In this document: positions 4,756 through 44,647 of the stretch, piece after piece
Layout of the letters: every line of letters begins with the position of its first letter
Numbering within the stretch: the first letter of the stretch is position 1
Virus record (IMG/VR): IMGVR_UViG_2639762844_000003
Reading direction: 5' to 3' (one strand)
DNA: 47,664 nt
Source: a virus
Lineage: Duplodnaviria; Heunggongvirae; Uroviricota; Caudoviricetes
Made by a program: the position numbers and the translations under genes
Notes under the pieces: generated by a model
What the model was told of the DNA's origin: nothing
The model's input: the letters and a program-made list of their open reading frames with translations, nothing else
Database searches by the model: none

Positions 4756-4808
4756 ACGGCGGCAGAGCAGTCACGGAGTAAAACTGATACCGCCAAACGT
4801 CACCAGAA
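4756..4808 (-). ncRNA. dicF: DicF-like small RNA (antisense regulator of ftsZ)
   Basis: Minus strand reads TTTCTGGTGACGTTTGGCGGTATCAGTTTTACTCCGTGACTGCTCTGCCGCC followed by a T-run, matching the recalled DicF sequence; lies between the ydfA-like genes and dicB. Confidence 0.55.
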
Positions 4809-10427: not shown

Positions 10428-10892
10428 TAGAAGGTTAGCTTGTGTCGGACTTTGCGTATTAAATGACTAGTGGTTGAGCCCCATTTCCACAGAAAAAATC
10501 AGAGAAACTATACCCAATAGTTGTATTGAATCACTGACGAGACAGCCTCATATTCATCAGGACTGGTGTACGTCCAATACAGGAGGTTGTGGTGCTGGTT
10601 CTCAAATGTGCGCTGGCTATTACGGCTGTAATGGCGATTTATTGTCTTGCTATTGTTCTTATGGATCGCCTTTCTGACTGATTTCACATTGGCGAGGTAA
10701 CGGTAGTTAAGTAGAATGGCTGCGGGTGCTTGAGGCTATCTGCCTCGGGCATGAACACCAACGGCAGATAGAGAAAAGCCCCAGTTAACATTACGCGTCC
10801 TGCAAGACGCTTAACATTAATCTGAGGCCAATTTCATGCTAGACACATGTAGGTTAGCCTCTTACGTGCCGAAAGGCAAGGAGAAGCAGGCT

Positions 10893-11048
10893 ATGAAGCA
10901 GCAAAAGGCGATGTTAATCGCCCTGATCGTCATCTGTTTAACCGTCATAGTGACGGCACTGGTAACGAGGAAAGACCTCTGCGAGGTACGAATCCGAACC
11001 GGGCAGACGGAGGTCGCTGTCTTCACAGCTTACGAACCTGAGGAGTAA
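10893..11048 (+). CDS. hok: Hok/Gef-family type I toxin (membrane-depolarising peptide)
   Basis: 51-aa product MKQQKAMLIALIVICLTVIVTALVTRKDLCEVRIRTGQTEVAVFTAYEPEE, near-identical in pattern to Gef/HokC; in-frame upstream ATG at 10836 is mok-like. Confidence 0.8.
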   Translation: MKQQKAMLIALIVICLTVIVTALVTRKDLCEVRIRTGQTEVAVFTAYEPEE

Positions 11049-12924: not shown

Positions 12925-13299
12925 ATGCTCATAGATTTGGTTTTACCTTACCCGCCGACGGTGAACACTTACTGGCGACGCCGTGGCAGCACATATTTTA
13001 TCTCGGAGGAGGGAAAGCGTTATCGCCGGGCTGTGGCGCTTATTGTTCGCCAGCAGCGGCTGAAATTAAGCCTGTCCGGAAGGCTGGCGATAAAGGTGAT
13101 TGCAGAGCCACCGGATAAGCGTCGTCGCGACCTGGACAATATCCTGAAAGCACCGCTGGATGCGCTGACGCATGCGGGAGTGTTAATGGACGATGAGCAG
13201 TTTGATGAAATCAATATCGTTCGTGGTCAGCCAGTATCTGGTGGACGTCTGGGGGTGAAGATTTACCCCATAATGCATGAAGAGCAGGTCAAAAAATGA
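12925..13299 (+). CDS. rusA: RusA Holliday-junction resolvase
   Basis: 124-aa product with ..DKRRRDLDNILKAPLDALTHAGVLMDDEQ.. closely paralleling E. coli RusA; AAGAGGTG Shine-Dalgarno. Confidence 0.85.
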   Translation: MLIDLVLPYPPTVNTYWRRRGSTYFISEEGKRYRRAVALIVRQQRLKLSLSGRLAIKVIAEPPDKRRRDLDNILKAPLDALTHAGVLMDDEQFDEINIVRGQPVSGGRLGVKIYPIMHEEQVKK

Positions 13300-14117
13300 A
13301 ACTGGAAGATTTACCGAAATACTACTCCCCAAAATCCCCTTGCCTGACCGATGCATCGGCCTCAACGTCAAAAGATGCGCTGAGTATCACTGATGTGATG
13401 GCCGCGCAGGGCATGACACAGAATCGGGCTGAGATGGGGTTTTCTGCGTTCCTGGGGAAAATGGGCATCAGTATGAATGACAGGGCGCGGGCAACAGAAT
13501 TACTGGCAGATTATGCACTCAGTCGGTGCGATCGTGTGGCGGCGTTGAGAAAACTTCCGGTAGAAATAAAACCGTTAGTGATGCGCATTATGGCTTCGTA
13601 CGCTTTTGAGGATTATGCCCGCAGCGCAGCGAGTAAAAAGCAGTGCCCTTGTTGCTATGGGGAAAAATTTATTGAAAGCGTAGTTTTTACAAACAAGGTC
13701 CAGTATCCGGATGGTAAGCCGCCGGTATGGGCAAAGTGTACGAAAGGTGTGTATCCGTCTTACTGGGAAGAATGGAAAAAAGTCAGGGAGGTGGTAAAAG
13801 TTGCCTGTCCGGAGTGTGGCGGAAAGGGTGAGGTTTCCACCGTCTGTAAGGATTGCCGTGGGCGTGGTGTCGCCATTCACCGTGAAGAGTCGGTAAAACG
13901 TGGTATGCCTGTTATCAGAGACTGCCAGCGTTGTGGTGGTCGTGGCTATGAAAGACTACCATCAACGGAGGCATTTAATGCTATATGCGAGGTGACAAAC
14001 CAGATAACACGCGCGTCATGGGAAAAAACAGTTAAGAAATTCTATGATGCGCTGGTGACCCGGTTTGATATTGAAGAAGCATGGGCTGAGCGGCAGTTAA
14101 AAAAGGTAACTAGGTAA
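13296..14117 (+). CDS. Late antiterminator Q (Cys-rich zinc-binding type)
   Basis: 273-aa ORF with several CxxC pairs, start overlapping the rusA stop (ATGA), immediately upstream of a promoter-terminator pair. Confidence 0.8.
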   Translation: MKLEDLPKYYSPKSPCLTDASASTSKDALSITDVMAAQGMTQNRAEMGFSAFLGKMGISMNDRARATELLADYALSRCDRVAALRKLPVEIKPLVMRIMASYAFEDYARSAASKKQCPCCYGEKFIESVVFTNKVQYPDGKPPVWAKCTKGVYPSYWEEWKKVREVVKVACPECGGKGEVSTVCKDCRGRGVAIHREESVKRGMPVIRDCQRCGGRGYERLPSTEAFNAICEVTNQITRASWEKTVKKFYDALVTRFDIEEAWAERQLKKVTR

Positions 14118-14121
14118 CAAG

Positions 14122-14149
14122 GTTGATTTTTCCGGAATCTGTGGTAAAT
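14122..14149 (+). promoter_or_regulatory. Candidate late promoter pR' (Q utilisation region)
   Basis: -35 TTGATT, 16-nt spacer, -10 TAAATT just after the Q stop. Confidence 0.5.
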
Positions 14150-14199
14150 TCGTCATAACGATGGGCTTTTTATACCTGACGTTAGAAGAGTTTCTACAA

Positions 14200-14222
14200 C
14201 CCGCCACCGAGCGGGTTTTTTA
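14200..14222 (+). terminator. tR'-like rho-independent terminator
   Basis: CCCGC-CACCGA-GCGGG hairpin plus TTTTTTAT, about 50 nt downstream of the candidate pR'. Confidence 0.65.
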
Positions 14223-14260
14223 TTGCGGAATTAATTACGGACCGTTATTATTCTGCTCCC

Positions 14261-14336
14261 GGTCCTTTAGCTCAGTGGTGAGAGCGAGCGACTCATAATC
14301 GCCAGGTCGCTGGTTCAAATCCAGCAAGGGCCACCA
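14261..14336 (+). tRNA. tRNA with CAU anticodon (Met, or Ile2 ileZ-like)
   Basis: Cloverleaf read by hand: 7-bp acceptor stem, GCTCAGTGG D-arm, CAU anticodon loop, GGTTCAAATCC T-arm, 3' ACCA. Confidence 0.85.
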
Positions 14337-14441
14337 TCACAAACCGCCATGAGCTTATCAGGAAGAGCAGACGACACGATAACAGGGTTGTTGGTGCGGG
14401 GGGGGGGCGGGTCCCCGATGGCGGTCCATTATCGGTATTCA

Positions 14442-14518
14442 GCGTTGTTAGCTCAGCCGGACAGAGCAATTGCCTTCTAAGCAATCGGTCACTGGTTCGA
14501 ATCCAGTACAGCGCGCCA
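14442..14518 (+). tRNA. tRNA-Arg (UCU anticodon)
   Basis: Acceptor GCGTTGT/ACAGCGC, D-arm GCTCAGCCGGACAGAGC, anticodon stem ATTGC/GCAAT with loop CTTCTAA, T-arm GGTTCGAATCC, 3' GCCA. Confidence 0.85.
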
Positions 14519-14628
14519 TATTCATTCTTCCAGATTCCTTCCGGCAGAGCCTTATACTGGAATATACCTGGCTCAGGATATTGTTGAAAATATTATATGT
14601 TTGTCAAAAATAAAAGTTCTGTTAAGTA

Positions 14629-14982
14629 TTGATTGAGTGTTTGTTATACGGTCTAATGGTTTTTTCAGCATTAAATATTTATCATTCATATGGTGTGGGT
14701 AGAGTGAATATTGATGAGGCGTCGGGGTGTTTCATCCTTAGGCAGCGTATTGATATAGTCAATGCAGCACGAGCAAAGGCCTTCAGCCGTTTGACAGTTT
14801 TGTTCTGTGCTCCTGATCGTCTTTCGGGAAGAGACGTTATTATTCTGAATAGTGATGCTATACAGAGGGTTTGCGATGAGTTCATGGTTGCTAATTCAGA
14901 ATTATTTGCTCTTGTTCAGGAGTACAACAGAATAGCCAGGACCTGTGGTATGGATGAACTTCGGATTACTCATCTGGGGTAG
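14629..14982 (+). CDS. Hypothetical protein (weak call)
   Basis: 117-aa ORF with GTG start and no clear Shine-Dalgarno. Confidence 0.3.
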   Translation: MIECLLYGLMVFSALNIYHSYGVGRVNIDEASGCFILRQRIDIVNAARAKAFSRLTVLFCAPDRLSGRDVIILNSDAIQRVCDEFMVANSELFALVQEYNRIARTCGMDELRITHLG

Positions 14983-15456
14983 ATACATATCTGGATTATC
15001 ACCTGTTACGGTAAAAAGTGATTGCTTACTGTTTTTGTGAATGGCATTGCAGCAGCCGGATAATGTCAGTGCTGGCTGACGGTGTGCTGGTGGCGGGTGT
15101 GGTGGTTGTTGCTTTCCCGTTGCTGAAAAAGAAAACGCCAGACTGTTAGCCGGGTATCAGTTAGCGGGAGAAATTTTTAAATACTTCACAATTCAGGCGG
15201 TTGACTGTTCTCTGGTTTGCGGGGAGTTTGTTAAAAGAAACTGGCATGGTGAATCCCCCTGTGCGGAGGGGCAATCAGCGAGTAGGTATATGGGATAATC
15301 GCGGATTCAGGTGCTGGTACTGAATTCACCGGGAGGCACCCGGCACCATGCACTTCAATAGATTCTCTCCACATTATGGATATTCTTTCAGAATATCCCA
15401 CGCAGACTTTGTGTAAATGTTAACAAATGTGCGTTTTATTTGATCTGATTCGCTGT

Positions 15457-15486
15457 TTGAGCGTCCAAAACAACGGTATATATAAT
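15457..15486 (+). promoter_or_regulatory. Sigma70-like promoter upstream of the first TolA-like lipoprotein gene
   Basis: -35 TTGAGC (15457-15462), 18-nt spacer, consensus -10 TATAAT (15481-15486); GAGGA Shine-Dalgarno and ATG follow. Confidence 0.5.
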
Positions 15487-15515
15487 CCTTTACTATATGA
15501 CATATGTGAGGAAAA

Positions 15516-15944
15516 ATGGGTTTTCGTAGCGCATCAATTCTTACGTTGATTATTAGTGGGATTATTATCGGGTGCACTGATGCTGTATCGACAAATTATC
15601 ATGACCGTACATCATATTACTCCGATAAAGCAATAGAGACACAGTATGTGAGTTCATCTGAACGTACTTCTGATGTTAGTGAGGATATCCGTCTGTATGC
15701 CCATCAAATCAAGAGCGCCATCGAAAAACAGTTCGGGGATGCGAGTAAGTATTCAGGAAAAGAGTGTACACTGAGAATGCATATGGCCCCGAATGGCCTT
15801 CTACTGGAGGTTAAAAGAGAAAGTGGAGACCTCGATTTATGTCGTGAAGCGATGAATGCGATAAAGAATGCTGATATACCTGCCCCCCCTTCGCCGGAAG
15901 TATATAAAGTATTTCAAAATGGGGTGCTGGATTTTAAACCCTGA
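15516..15944 (+). CDS. Lipoprotein with TolA C-terminal (domain III)-like domain
   Basis: Signal peptide with IIGC lipobox; C-terminal ~85 aa (HQIKSAIEKQFGDASKYSGKECTLRMHMAPNGLLLEV...LCREAMNAIKNADIPAPPSPEVYKVFQNGVLDFKP) align motif for motif with the recalled TolA C-terminus (..IKSAIESKFYDASSYAGKTCTLRIKLAPDGMLLDIK...LCQAALAAAKLAKIPKPPSQAVYEVFKNAPLDFKP). Confidence 0.8.
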   Translation: MGFRSASILTLIISGIIIGCTDAVSTNYHDRTSYYSDKAIETQYVSSSERTSDVSEDIRLYAHQIKSAIEKQFGDASKYSGKECTLRMHMAPNGLLLEVKRESGDLDLCREAMNAIKNADIPAPPSPEVYKVFQNGVLDFKP

Positions 15945-16094
15945 TATTTATTGTTTTGTAATAAACGGTTTCGGCTTAGGTTTGTTCTGACACAACTACG
16001 GCACTGAGCTAAATCTAGCGGATAGTCAGCTCTGAGCCAGTGGCGGACGTAACAACTACTATTGCTGAGATTTTAATGGATTGAGGAGCAAGAA

Positions 16095-16490
16095 GTGGGA
16101 TTAAAGAAAATCGTTATGTTGACTTTTTGGGTCAGTTTTGTTGCGGGATGCACACCTTTACACCCTTCAGATTGCCACAAAACTACTGCTACAGGTAGTT
16201 GCAGTTCAGGACGCTGGGATGATCAGGATGAATGGGGGGCGCAAGCGCGGGGAATCAGAGCTGCAATTAATGCCAAACTTGATGAGCCGCATAACTGGAA
16301 AGGGAAAAAATGCAGGTTGCATATGGAATTCTCTCAGGATGGCACGGCGTTAAAAATATCTACCAGTAACGGTGATAAAGCCTATTGCGAAGCGATAAAG
16401 TCCGCAGCTCATAAAGCCAAATTTCCGGCCTTCAACAATCCGGAAGTCTACAGAGATTTTCAGAAATCTGGCTTTGACATGCGAGGTTAG
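16095..16490 (+). CDS. Lipoprotein, diverged paralog of the TolA-domain lipoprotein
   Basis: GTG start after GAGGAG; VAGC lipobox; C-terminus KKCRLHMEFSQDGTALKIS...YCEAIKSAAHKAKFPAFNNPEVYRDFQKSGFDMRG keeps the same motif order as the upstream paralog. Confidence 0.75.
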   Translation: MGLKKIVMLTFWVSFVAGCTPLHPSDCHKTTATGSCSSGRWDDQDEWGAQARGIRAAINAKLDEPHNWKGKKCRLHMEFSQDGTALKISTSNGDKAYCEAIKSAAHKAKFPAFNNPEVYRDFQKSGFDMRG

Positions 16491-16741
16491 CTCTTCAATT
16501 ACTATATCTCATTCATAGCAAACTGACAGATTTGATGATGTTCTATATACGAAACCTGTGATGTCAAGTCTGAGCTAATACAAATAAACATAATATCAGA
16601 GAAATACATTTTATTAGCTCGCTACGGCGAGCTTTTTATATTGCATCGTCTCCAGCATATATATCAATTAAGGCTCTGATTGATGTGTCTGGAAGCCTAC
16701 ACATAATAACTATGCCATCCGTTCCGTGCGGAGGTGAGGCT

Positions 16742-16957
16742 ATGAAATCCATGGACAAAATTTCAACAGGCATTGCCTACGGCACCTCCGCAGGCAGTGC
16801 TGGCTACTGGTTTTTACAGCTGCTCGATAAAGTCACGCCCTCACAGTGGGCAGCAATAGGTGTGCTGGGTAGCCTGGTATTTGGCCTGCTGACGTACCTG
16901 ACAAACCTTTATTTCAAGATTAAAGAAGACAAGCGTAAGGCTGCACGGGGAGAGTAA
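16742..16957 (+). CDS. Phage-21-type pinholin (class II holin) with dual-start motif
   Basis: [71 protein letters not shown] closely matches recalled S21; two in-frame ATGs (MKSM) for antiholin and holin; GGAGGTGAGG Shine-Dalgarno. Confidence 0.85.
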
Positions 16958-17306: not shown

Positions 17307-17476
17307 TTTCACCAGCATATTTTTCTTCCAGTAATACCGCCAGCCACTTGAAAGAATTTTGTTGTTGCTGGGACCATTTGGGGTTGAGTGATTCAAGCTG
17401 GAGCGATGCCAGTGTTGGTTGCATTTGTTCCTTGGGAATTGAGAATTGAAGTGGTCAACAAAAACTGGCCACCGAG

Positions 17477-18624
<1,148 letters not shown>

Positions 18625-18902
18625 TATGGCACCTGTGTTGTTCTGAGGTGAGCATATCACCTCTGTTCAGGTGGCCAAATTCAGTAAACCACTTCAAATG
18701 CCAGATATGAAAATGCGACAGTAAGGGCATTTACATCATCCCGAAGCTTGGAAATGCAGTCGAGCAACTCCTGTAGAGAAATGGTGCTATTGTCCATAAA
18801 CAATCCTCTCTATTGTATTTAACTATTCCTTGCCTGATTCAACAGGCCGGGACAGATAAACATATCCAGGGTTCAGAAACCGATAAATCCTGATAAATAT
18901 CC

Positions 18903-19445
18903 ATGAACGTAAAAATCAGATACGGCCTGTCGGCTGCCGTTCTGGCACTGATTGCCGTCGGTGCGCCTGCGCCTGATATTCTCGACCAGTTTCTGAATGA
19001 AAAAGAAGGTAACCACACAACGGCATACCGCGATGGTTCCGGCATCTGGACCATCTGTCGGGGTGCCACGGTGGTGGATGGAAAACCCGTTTTTCCCGGT
19101 ATGAAACTGTCGAAGGAAAAATGCGACCAGGTTAACGCCATTGAACGGGATAAGGCGCTGGCATGGGTGGAGCGCAATATTAAAGTGCCACTGACCGAAC
19201 CACAGAAAGCGGGTATAGCGTCATTTTGTCCCTATAACATTGGCCCCGGTAAGTGTTTCCCGTCGACGTTTTATAAGCGGCTGAATGCCGATGATCGTAA
19301 GGGGGCATGCGAGGCGATTCGCTGGTGGATAAAAGATGGTGGGCGTGATTGCCGCCTGACAAAAGGGCAGAAGAATGGCTGTTATGGGCAGGTCGAGCGG
19401 CGCGATCAGGAAAGCGCACTGGCGTGCTGGGGGCTGGAGCAATGA
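18903..19445 (+). CDS. SAR endolysin (phage-21 R-type lysozyme)
   Basis: N-terminal signal-anchor-release segment (GLSAAVLALIAVGAPA) followed by the E-D-T catalytic triad context EGNHTTAYRDGSGIWTICRG. Confidence 0.85.
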   Translation: MNVKIRYGLSAAVLALIAVGAPAPDILDQFLNEKEGNHTTAYRDGSGIWTICRGATVVDGKPVFPGMKLSKEKCDQVNAIERDKALAWVERNIKVPLTEPQKAGIASFCPYNIGPGKCFPSTFYKRLNADDRKGACEAIRWWIKDGGRDCRLTKGQKNGCYGQVERRDQESALACWGLEQ

Positions 19446-20146: not shown

Positions 20147-20839
20147 TCAAATCTTATCTAACTCATTATAGGCTTCGATAATAAAAATTCTGATTTTAAT
20201 AAGGCATGATTCAATGAAAGGAATTACTTCATGGTCATTCCCATGGAATCTTATTTTTTTCTCTTCGGTAATGACTATGTTTAAAGGTACACCATTACCA
20301 CTTCTTTGTAATTTCCCATTTTCGAAAGTAAAGTCTTCTAATTTTTTGCCATTGATGTGGTTGTTTTTAAAGAGAATTTTTGCTGAGCTTCCTGCTGTGA
20401 TTAAACCAAAACCATCTACGCTCACACTTAGGTCTTTAACAGAACTCTCTTCTCTTAAGGGGATTGGTTGTCTGTGCTTTACTTCATTAGTGAGATTACA
20501 CATCATTTCCAACCAAGATTCGCCAGTGTGATAATCCTGTATAGAAGTAAAAATTTTATATAATGGAGAAGATGATGGTGGGTTTATTTTTAGCGTCTTT
20601 GAGAAAAATTTATCAATAAACTCTTTTTTTCCGTAAGGGAAATATATTTTGGGGCGCTCATCATTACTGCGTGGAGAAATATATTTATCATAGGTATCAT
20701 TAGCGAGATACTCTAAGGAACTTCGTAAGTTTTCCAAAATAGCTTTGACTTTTACAGGCTTGATATGCTGTGTCTGTCTCATTATGTCAAGACTTTCTTC
20801 AACTTCTTGCAATAAGTCCAACGAGCCTTCTCTAGACAT
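20147..20839 (-). CDS. AT-rich cargo protein, 230 aa, unknown function
   Basis: GGAGAA Shine-Dalgarno 8 nt before the ATG at 20839; opposite strand to the late operon; AT-rich codon usage; no recognisable motif. Confidence 0.6.
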   Translation of the reverse strand: MSREGSLDLLQEVEESLDIMRQTQHIKPVKVKAILENLRSSLEYLANDTYDKYISPRSNDERPKIYFPYGKKEFIDKFFSKTLKINPPSSSPLYKIFTSIQDYHTGESWLEMMCNLTNEVKHRQPIPLREESSVKDLSVSVDGFGLITAGSSAKILFKNNHINGKKLEDFTFENGKLQRSGNGVPLNIVITEEKKIRFHGNDHEVIPFIESCLIKIRIFIIEAYNELDKI

Positions 20840-44066: not shown

Positions 44067-44647
44067 TGGCATTCAGAATGAGTGAACAACCACGGACCAT
44101 AAAAATTTATAATCTGCTGGTCGGAACTAATGAATTTATTGGTGAAGGTGACGCATATATTCCGCCTCATACAGGTCTGCCAGCAAACAGTACCGATATT
44201 GCACCACCAGATATTCCTGCTGGCTTTGTGGCTGTTTTCAACAGTGATGAGGCATCGTGGCATCTCGTTGAAGACCATCGGGGTAAAACGGTTTATGACG
44301 TGGCTTCCGGCGACGCGTTATTTATTTCTGAACTCGGCTCATTACCGGAAAATGTCACCTGGTTATCCCCGGAAGGGGAGTTTCAGAAGTGGAACGGCAC
44401 AGCCTGGGTGAAAGATGCAGAAGCAGAAAAACTATTCCGGATCCGGGAGGCGGAAGAAACAAAAAACAGCCTGATGCAGGCAGCGAATGAGCATATTGCG
44501 CCACTTCAGGATGCTGTAGATCTGGAAATCGCAACGGAGGAAGAAAACTCGTTGCTGGAAGCCTGGAAAAAGTATCGGGTGTTGCTGAACCGTGTTAATA
44601 CAACAACTGCACCGGATATTGAATGGCCAGTAGCACCTATAGGGTAA
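44066..44647 (+). CDS. tfa: Tail fibre assembly protein (Tfa-like)
   Basis: 193-aa ORF whose start overlaps the stf stop; lambda order. Confidence 0.85.

Follow-up and report, generated by a model that had tools for sequence, protein, structure and literature searches.

The 47,664-nucleotide (nt) DNA stretch of IMG/VR virus record IMGVR_UViG_2639762844_000003 (Caudoviricetes), referred to here as the window, very probably carries a lambda-like late-gene control unit of an Escherichia coli prophage that is joined to a tRNA cassette of the type found in Shiga toxin (Stx) phages. The unit consists of the antiterminator gene Q, the late promoter pR', a candidate promoter-proximal pause element and the terminator tR', with the cassette directly behind it. 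Its architecture is that of a textbook lambdoid late switch combined with a known Stx-phage tRNA cassette and thus represents an already known, ordinary element. Q and both tRNAs are already annotated in public records while pR', the pause element, tR', the candidate Q element and a pseudo-tRNA are not. The value of the analysis lies mainly in annotation and no concept is changed by it; its modest additions comprise the pseudo-argN, the assignment of the tRNA with anticodon CAU as Ile2, a candidate Q-binding element, a mosaic joint and a cargo slot equivalent to the position of stx. The 3.3-kb module is present at a coverage of at least 80% in 357 of 5426 complete E. coli genomes (ca. 7%), and several E. 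coli chromosomes carry a 100% identical copy. Prophages such as that in NZ_CP180597 and the isolated phage mEp460_ev081 (LR597641), which carries the intact module at 99.3% identity, are 99.3–100% identical to the window from Q through the TolA-like genes and represent essentially the same element. Differences between these relatives and the window are confined to the length of a G-run in argN, single tRNA bases and insertion sequence (IS) insertions in the lysis region.

Q, pR' and tR'

The late-gene control unit comprises the following features:

13296–14117, + strand: Q, late-gene transcription antiterminator of 273 amino acids (PF03589, lambda/phi80 family)
14123–14150, + strand: pR' late promoter, -35 TTGATT at 14123–14128 and -10 TAAATT at 14145–14150
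14157–14165, + strand: candidate sigma70-dependent pause element, AACGAT then GGG, with the predicted +1 at 14157 (lambda/P22 match)
14157–14223, + strand: predicted pR'-tR' leader RNA of ca. 64–68 nt, counterpart of lambda 6S RNA and StxS (fold, alignment)
14198–14223, + strand: tR' intrinsic terminator, AACCCGC-CACCGA-GCGGGTT then a T-run (terminator scan, fold)

A first-pass annotation of the window had placed a Q gene just upstream of a sigma70-like promoter, and the open reading frame (ORF) at this position indeed matches Pfam family PF03589 'Antitermination protein Q' (E 2e-54) and phrog_127 'anti-termination protein Q-like' (1.6e-109). The protein shares 31% identity with lambda Q (E 5e-39), aligns with the solved structures of lambda Q (7UBM and 4MO1) and retains the zinc-finger cysteines C184, C187, C210 and C213, which are invariant with lambda Q and across seven family members. 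It is 66 amino acids longer than lambda Q and carries a Cys-rich insertion of ca. 66 residues with a sub-threshold match to DnaJ_CXXCXGXG. The same insertion is found in other long-form Qs including phi80 Q (gp17), which belongs to the same subfamily and is 41% identical. Closer relatives are the Qs of Stx2_EH1910 (90%), mEp237 (54%) and Midgardsormr38 (ca. 48–51%), with those of the mEp460/SfV/Stx2c group being ca. 39% identical. Prototype 933W-type Qs belong to another family (PF06530, 144 amino acids) and the Q/pR' unit of the window is consequently assigned to the lambda/phi80 type and not to the 933W type.

The promoter begins 5 nt past the Q stop codon and has the form TTGATT-16-TGnTAAATT, in line with the sigma70-like promoter proposed directly after Q. 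Its 16-nt spacer, TTTCCGGAATCTGTGG (14129–14144), ends in TGg and thereby supplies an extended -10 TG at 14142–14143. The -10 hexamer is followed by 6 nt and then by AACGATGGG (14157–14165), an exact match to lambda pR' over 15 specified bases that is also found in P22. TAAATT-N6-AACGATGGG occurs once in the window, with 0.09 occurrences expected even when two mismatches are allowed. The layout recurs after Q in nine other phages. A -10 hexamer, 6–7 nt and AACNNT follow Q in phi80, P22, ES18, mEp237, Midgardsormr38, mEp460, SfV and Stx2_EH1910, and the columns of the pause element are invariant in a seven-phage alignment. In lambda, AACGAT resembles a -10 element, spans +1 to +6 and retains sigma70, and the promoter-proximal pause that results is where Q loads. 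By analogy, we infer that AACGAT at 14157 is a sigma70-dependent promoter-proximal pause element. The lambda Q/pR'/qut/tR' (6S RNA) region thus shares with the window a PF03589 Q, the TAAATT hexamer, the 6-nt gap to AACGATGGG and a downstream intrinsic terminator followed by lysis and morphogenesis genes. In contrast to lambda, the window has an unrelated spacer of 16 nt and a weaker -35, but an extended -10 TG. The phi80 promoter differs from that of the window in its hexamers (TTGCAT and TAGATT) and its pause element (AACGCT).

The spacer between -35 and -10 varies with Q subtype while the hexamers and the pause element are constant. A spacer of the form TTTTCC(G/C)GAA(T/A)CTG is common to the window, Stx2_EH1910, mEp237 and Midgardsormr38. 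The mEp460/SfV/Stx2c group carries TTTTTCAAAAAATATGGA instead, and lambda and P22 share a third sequence. In addition, the phi80 record annotates the sequence TCGCGGA, 1 nt after the -35, as a Q-binding site; its counterpart at that position in the window is TTCCGGA. This is the pattern that a Q-specific binding element should show, and the spacer stretch TTCCGGAATCTG is a candidate for such a Q-action element.

The first-pass annotation had also reported a terminator about 50 nt downstream of the promoter. The stem of tR' begins at a distance of 48 nt from the -10 hexamer and 41 nt from the predicted +1, consists of 7 pairs (5 of them G-C) around a 6-nt loop (14198–14217) and is followed by TTTTTTATT. 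Hits resembling terminators are not uncommon in this region (5 against 2.4 expected), and the weight for tR' therefore comes from its conservation at the same position in related phages. The hairpin is found there in Stx2_EH1910, mEp460, SfV, F1055 and Stx2c phages with stem changes restricted to G-U, and the SfV record annotates it as a rho-independent terminator. The distance from the start is ca. +65 in the window, similar to the first terminator at ca. +60 to +75 in most of phi80 (ca. +75), P22, ES18, mEp237, mEp460, SfV and Stx2_EH1910. The first hairpin found in Midgardsormr38 lies at ca. +138 and the lambda terminator is located much further downstream at +194. Two other annotations of this stretch were rejected. 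A Trp_leader match in Rfam at 14118–14224 scores 27.1 bits against a gathering score of 41 and reflects merely a hairpin with a U-run, and a 45-amino acid ORF at 14161–14298 starts at an ATG inside AACGATGGG and crosses the terminator into the first tRNA gene, ileZ.

Short terminated pR' RNAs have been documented for lambda, 21, phi80, 82, P22 and Stx phages (PMC7547250). Differential RNA sequencing and Term-seq of the Stx prophages of O157 Sakai show that pR' is always active and that transcription in the lysogen ends at tR', releasing the short RNA StxS (Sy et al., 2020; PMC7547250). In 933W-type phages, the distance from pR' to tR' that yields StxS is 258 nt by Term-seq, so the first hairpin after Q was rejected as the tR' of these phages (PMC7547250). 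For the window, a terminated leader RNA of ca. 65 nt is expected to be made constitutively in the lysogen by analogy with these systems. The predicted fold consists of a 5' hairpin and the terminator hairpin. Pairing of the first 4–5 bases of the transcript (AACGA) with a conserved (T)CGTT ca. 20 nt further on (14157–14183) is possible in every lambda-type pR' leader examined, including those of lambda, P22 and mEp237, and the resulting small 5' hairpin overlaps the pause element.

A possible, though unlikely, function of the pR'-tR' RNA (14157 to ca. 14223) is that of a trans-acting Hfq-type small RNA (sRNA) like StxS, which would act in the lysogen in its own right. The leader is shared by lambdoid phages of differing Q specificity and remains ca. 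80% identical in SfV, mEp460 and Stx2c phages, whose Qs are only ca. 39% identical and whose spacers are unrelated. Like Hfq-binding sRNAs, it has a Rho-independent terminator and a U-tail at its 3' end, and StxS itself provides a precedent (PMC7547250). Modular recombination together with the constraints of pausing and termination could account for this conservation. A covariation test across six phages found no compensatory pairs, so that structural support is confined to the terminator, the fold is unremarkable (z = -1.5), and the leader is without sequence similarity to StxS, the 933W-type leader differing also in its length of 258 nt.

Taken as a lambda-type switch, the unit would operate as follows. 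RNA polymerase carrying sigma70 would start constitutively at pR' (+1 at ca. 14157) and pause ca. 16 nt downstream as sigma70 re-binds the -10-like AACGAT. In a lysogen, it would terminate at tR' (ca. 14220) and release the ca. 65-nt RNA. After induction, Q made from the delayed-early transcript would bind its site in the -35/-10 spacer and load onto the paused polymerase, rendering it terminator-resistant. The Q-modified polymerase could then cross tR', the tRNA cassette, the cargo genes, a further terminator at 16616–16633 and an IS911-like element to reach the lysis and morphogenesis genes. The cassette probably has a weak constitutive promoter of its own that would give basal expression in the lysogen, boosted by Q-dependent readthrough.

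Several observations weigh against this assignment. A generic sigma70 consensus scan with a threshold of 9/12 missed pR', which scores 8/12, and the promoter call is therefore based on homology to lambda pR' and on conservation across phages. The -35-like TTGACT found just 5' of the lambda pause element is not conserved in the window. The evidence for the candidate Q-binding element is co-variation in a few phages and one annotated record, that of phi80, and the start site, the pause and antitermination are all argued from homology. Finally, this copy contains an IS911-like insertion and a dead tRNA gene, and its late operon may be impaired.

The tRNA cassette and its Stx-phage homologs

Downstream of tR', the following features make up the tRNA cassette:

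14223–14251, + strand: candidate cassette promoter, TTGCGG at 14223–14228, 17 nt, TATTAT at 14246–14251 (conserved ileZ flank)
14261–14336, + strand: ileZ, tRNA-Ile2, anticodon CAU, reads AUA (ARAGORN; Rfam 69.4 bits)
14344–14428, + strand: decayed remnant of argN, tRNA-Arg with anticodon UCG (alignment to intact ileZ-argN-argO)
14442–14518, + strand: argO, tRNA-Arg, anticodon UCU, reads AGA and AGG (ARAGORN; Rfam 68.0 bits)

The 47.6-kb window yields two tRNA genes, and no more, with ARAGORN, and Rfam supports both (E ca. 1e-14). Their positions and anticodons are those of the two tRNA genes, CAU and UCU, that had been proposed downstream of the terminator. The CAU tRNA shows a single-nucleotide difference from Stx-phage ileZ, shares 88% identity with K-12 ileX, a tRNA-Ile(CAU), and is distant from metT and metU. 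In addition, the Prokaryotic Genome Annotation Pipeline (PGAP) annotates it as tRNA-Ile in a 100% identical genome. It is accordingly classed as tRNA-Ile2, a predicted lysidine substrate at C34, and not as tRNA-Met. Its pairs C4-G69 and C5-G68 are known TilS determinants. An antisense Plastid-ycf2 match on ileZ is spurious. Similarly, argO is 1 nt from Stx-phage argO, which gives a U4-G69 wobble, and is distinct from K-12 argU. The single substitutions in ileZ and argO both convert a Watson-Crick acceptor-stem pair to a G-U wobble so that pairing is kept.

Alignment shows the 105-nt stretch that separates ileZ from argO to be a remnant of argN. Its acceptor stem and D arm are preserved, a long hairpin whose loop has only 3 nt has taken the place of the anticodon arm, and a run of ten Gs at 14398–14407 interrupts the T arm. 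Neither ARAGORN nor Rfam at E<=1 calls a tRNA in the remnant, and the lack of a call, the 3-nt loop and an unremarkable fold (z -1.0) led us to reject the idea that it is an unusual live tRNA. The G-run is 10 nt long in the window and in NZ_CP180597 and 5 nt long in mEp460_ev081 and vB_EcoS-640R1, identifying it as a length-variable homopolymer tract. By alignment, the full ileZ-argN-argO cassette is present in the window, but its middle gene is dead. In phage vB_EcoS-640R1, whose Q is the same, argO is truncated as well; together with the dead argN, this indicates that the cassette is eroding in stx-less lineages.

The similarity to Stx phages noted in the first-pass annotation is a matter of direct homology and not mere analogy. 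A segment of ca. 306 nt (14221–14526), including a 40-nt 5' flank, is 86% identical to the cassettes of the 933W-like phage WGPS8, EH1910 and other Stx2 phages, and gene order and flanks are the same with argN being only a remnant in the window. Comparison with the 933W Q-stx region shows that the cassette with its flank, the order of elements and an STnc100-family sRNA after the cargo position agree, but the families of Q do not; 933W/Sp5-type Stx2 phages moreover carry three intact tRNAs and a toxin cargo. The Stx2a-converting phage Stx2_EH1910 (LC567834) has a 90% identical Q, a pR', pause element, leader and tR' nearly identical to those of the window, the same ileZ and argO, and an STnc100 element to the right of the cargo slot. 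It differs in having hypothetical and DNA methylase genes between tR' and the tRNAs, an intact argN and stx2AB in the slot. There is no tRNA cassette in lambda, and phi80 has neither cassette nor cargo before its holin gene.

A mosaic joint is located at 14221 within the T-run of tR'. The leader to its left is common to SfV, mEp460 and Stx2c-type phages, and the 40-nt ileZ flank to its right is conserved in ca. 250 Stx-phage records and contains TTGC(G/A)G-17-TATTAT. From this conservation, we infer that TTGCGG-17-TATTAT is the cassette's own promoter, with a predicted start ca. 3 nt before ileZ. For O157 Sakai, Sy et al. (2020; PMC7547250) describe an additional primary start in the Stx prophages that lies between tR' and stx2AB and seems to serve the tRNAs. 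It is a serious possibility, though not the likelier one, that the tRNAs are essentially independent of Q and pR' and are expressed in the lysogen from their own promoter (14223–14251), their place behind tR' being an accident of mosaic recombination. The exact coincidence of the joint with the T-run, the conservation of the ileZ flank whatever lies upstream, and the Sakai start all point in this direction. So do the hypothetical and DNA methylase genes that lie between tR' and the cassette or later genes in Stx2_EH1910 and SfV-type phages, and the lack of tRNAs in the ca. 1.5 kb scanned downstream of Q in phi80, P22, ES18, mEp237 and Midgardsormr38. On the other hand, the -35 of the candidate promoter matches at only 3 of 6 positions, and the tRNAs are part of the transcript that Q antiterminates, and induction would lead to their co-transcription regardless of any promoter of their own. 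Independent expression and the Q-dependent switch are consequently additive and not mutually exclusive.

Codon counts support a role of the cassette in codon supply. The frequencies of ATA, AGA and AGG per 1000 codons are:

Early genes: 15.2, 9.9 and 6.2
Post-Q cargo: 20.6, 16.0 and 9.2
Structural late genes: 5.8, 3.4 and 4.3
stx2AB of an Stx2 phage, for comparison: 36.6, 14.6 and 4.9

The E. coli averages are roughly 4, 2 and 1 per 1000. ileZ and argO would supply tRNAs for codons that are rare in E. coli and 3–7-fold enriched in the early and accessory genes of the prophage. A further difficulty for a purely Q-controlled cassette is that rare-codon demand is highest in early genes, which are expressed before Q acts, and the codon-supply idea therefore fits only if the cassette's own promoter is real. 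Our literature search returned nothing usable on ileZ, argN and argO together.

The cargo slot and the TolA-like genes

The region between the cassette and the lysis genes contains the following features:

14527–15185, + strand: variable cargo slot, positional equivalent of stx2AB (Stx2-phage homology stops at 14526 and resumes at 15186)
14656–14982, + strand: ORF of phrog_2873, a family of unknown function (PHROG match; not called by PGAP)
15018–15149, + strand: TciB-like DUF3927 ORF of 43 amino acids (PGAP DUF3927; phrog_1470)
15215–15405, + strand: STnc100-family sRNA, right border of the cargo slot (RF02076, 114 bits)
15457–16633, + strand: moron unit with two TolA C-terminal-domain lipoprotein genes (PF06519, phrog_5772)

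Homology to Stx2 phages resumes at the STnc100 element, which directly follows stx2B in these phages (L003 4197–4408, L002 6654–6869). Since homology stops at 14526 and resumes at 15186, the intervening segment occupies the position of stx2AB. No stx homology and no stxAB genes are present in this slot, and the element is classed as an stx-less relative, as opposed to an Stx phage. In Stx phages, the place of stx is thus a general cargo slot between the tRNA cassette and the STnc100 sRNA that holds other genes in non-toxigenic relatives, which is useful background on the movement of stx between phage backbones. A 2026 preprint links STnc100 to PasD sRNAs, and the family is found twice in phage 640R1.

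The two TolA-like lipoproteins are paralogous. The first (15516–15944) has the lipobox IIGC and matches PF06519 at 2.4e-23, the second (16095–16490) has the lipobox VAGC and matches at 1.3e-14, and NCBIfam TolA models match their C-terminal ends only. A promoter-like site at 15457–15486 (10/12 in the promoter scan) precedes them and a strong intrinsic terminator at 16616–16633 closes the unit, so that the TolA-like genes look like an autonomous moron, probably with its own promoter, rather than a pure pR' target. They adjoin the TciB-like ORF, whose family phrog_1470 is labeled 'TciB-like inhibition of cell division or resistance to colicin', and the lipoproteins could be decoys against Tol-dependent colicins or filamentous phages. 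A broader scenario, which we consider improbable, combines an StxS-like constitutive sRNA function of the leader with a cargo (the TciB-like peptide and the two TolA lipoproteins) that acts as a decoy protecting the lysogen from Tol-dependent colicins or filamentous phages. If true, the late-control region would double as a lysogenic-conversion hub. No usable literature on TciB or on TolA-like prophage lipoproteins was found.

The late operon and other prophage features

The late operon and its insertions are represented by the following features:

16742–16957, + strand: holin of the EssD/phage 21 S type, first gene of the lysis/late operon (PF04971 1.8e-35; PGAP essD)
17447–18696, - strand: IS911-like element of the IS3 family, 1250 bp (28-nt inverted repeats at 17446–17473 and 18670–18697)
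18903–19445, + strand: lysozyme, downstream of the holin
20147–20839, - strand: AT-rich ORF (34% GC) of 230 amino acids, between the Rz and terminase genes (phrog_13652)
From 21411, + strand: terminase, downstream of the holin

Holin, lysozyme, Rz, terminase and tail genes all lie downstream of tR' on the same strand, and pR' chiefly serves the complete lysis and morphogenesis operon, from the holin through the tail fibers. The first-pass annotation had the promoter driving ORFs of unknown function and the TolA-like lipoproteins, which is incomplete: these genes do lie downstream in the path of Q, but pR' serves the entire late operon and the TolA-like genes look autonomous.

The IS911-like element separates ydfR from the lysozyme gene and is oriented against the late operon. 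NZ_CP180597, which is otherwise 100% identical, lacks this element but carries an IS66 ca. 190 bp away, and the spot between ydfR and the lysozyme gene appears to attract insertions. Together with the decay of argN to a pseudo-tRNA and the truncation of argO in phage 640R1, these insertions could be taken as signs of a cryptic prophage in which the unit is a decaying relic and Q, pR' and tR' no longer control a productive late program. We regard this as doubtful. Q is full length with all conserved cysteines, and promoter, pause element and terminator are intact, the segment 14118–14262 being 97.9% identical to mEp460_ev081. The ORFs for lysis, terminase, head and tail are all in place. The IS element moreover lies between genes, where Q-modified polymerase would be expected to read through it.

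The AT-rich ORF at 20147–20839 is rich in ATA (26 per 1000) and AGA (30 per 1000) and is likely a moron or defense gene that makes heavy use of both phage tRNAs. Three further RNA features, typical accessories of Qin/Rac-like prophages, are found elsewhere in the window:

4757–4808, - strand: DicF antisense RNA
10724–10898, + strand: hok/sok-type toxin-antitoxin locus (sok RNA; hokD and mokW annotated in relatives)
44409–44607, + strand: IS009 sRNA match in the tail-fiber region

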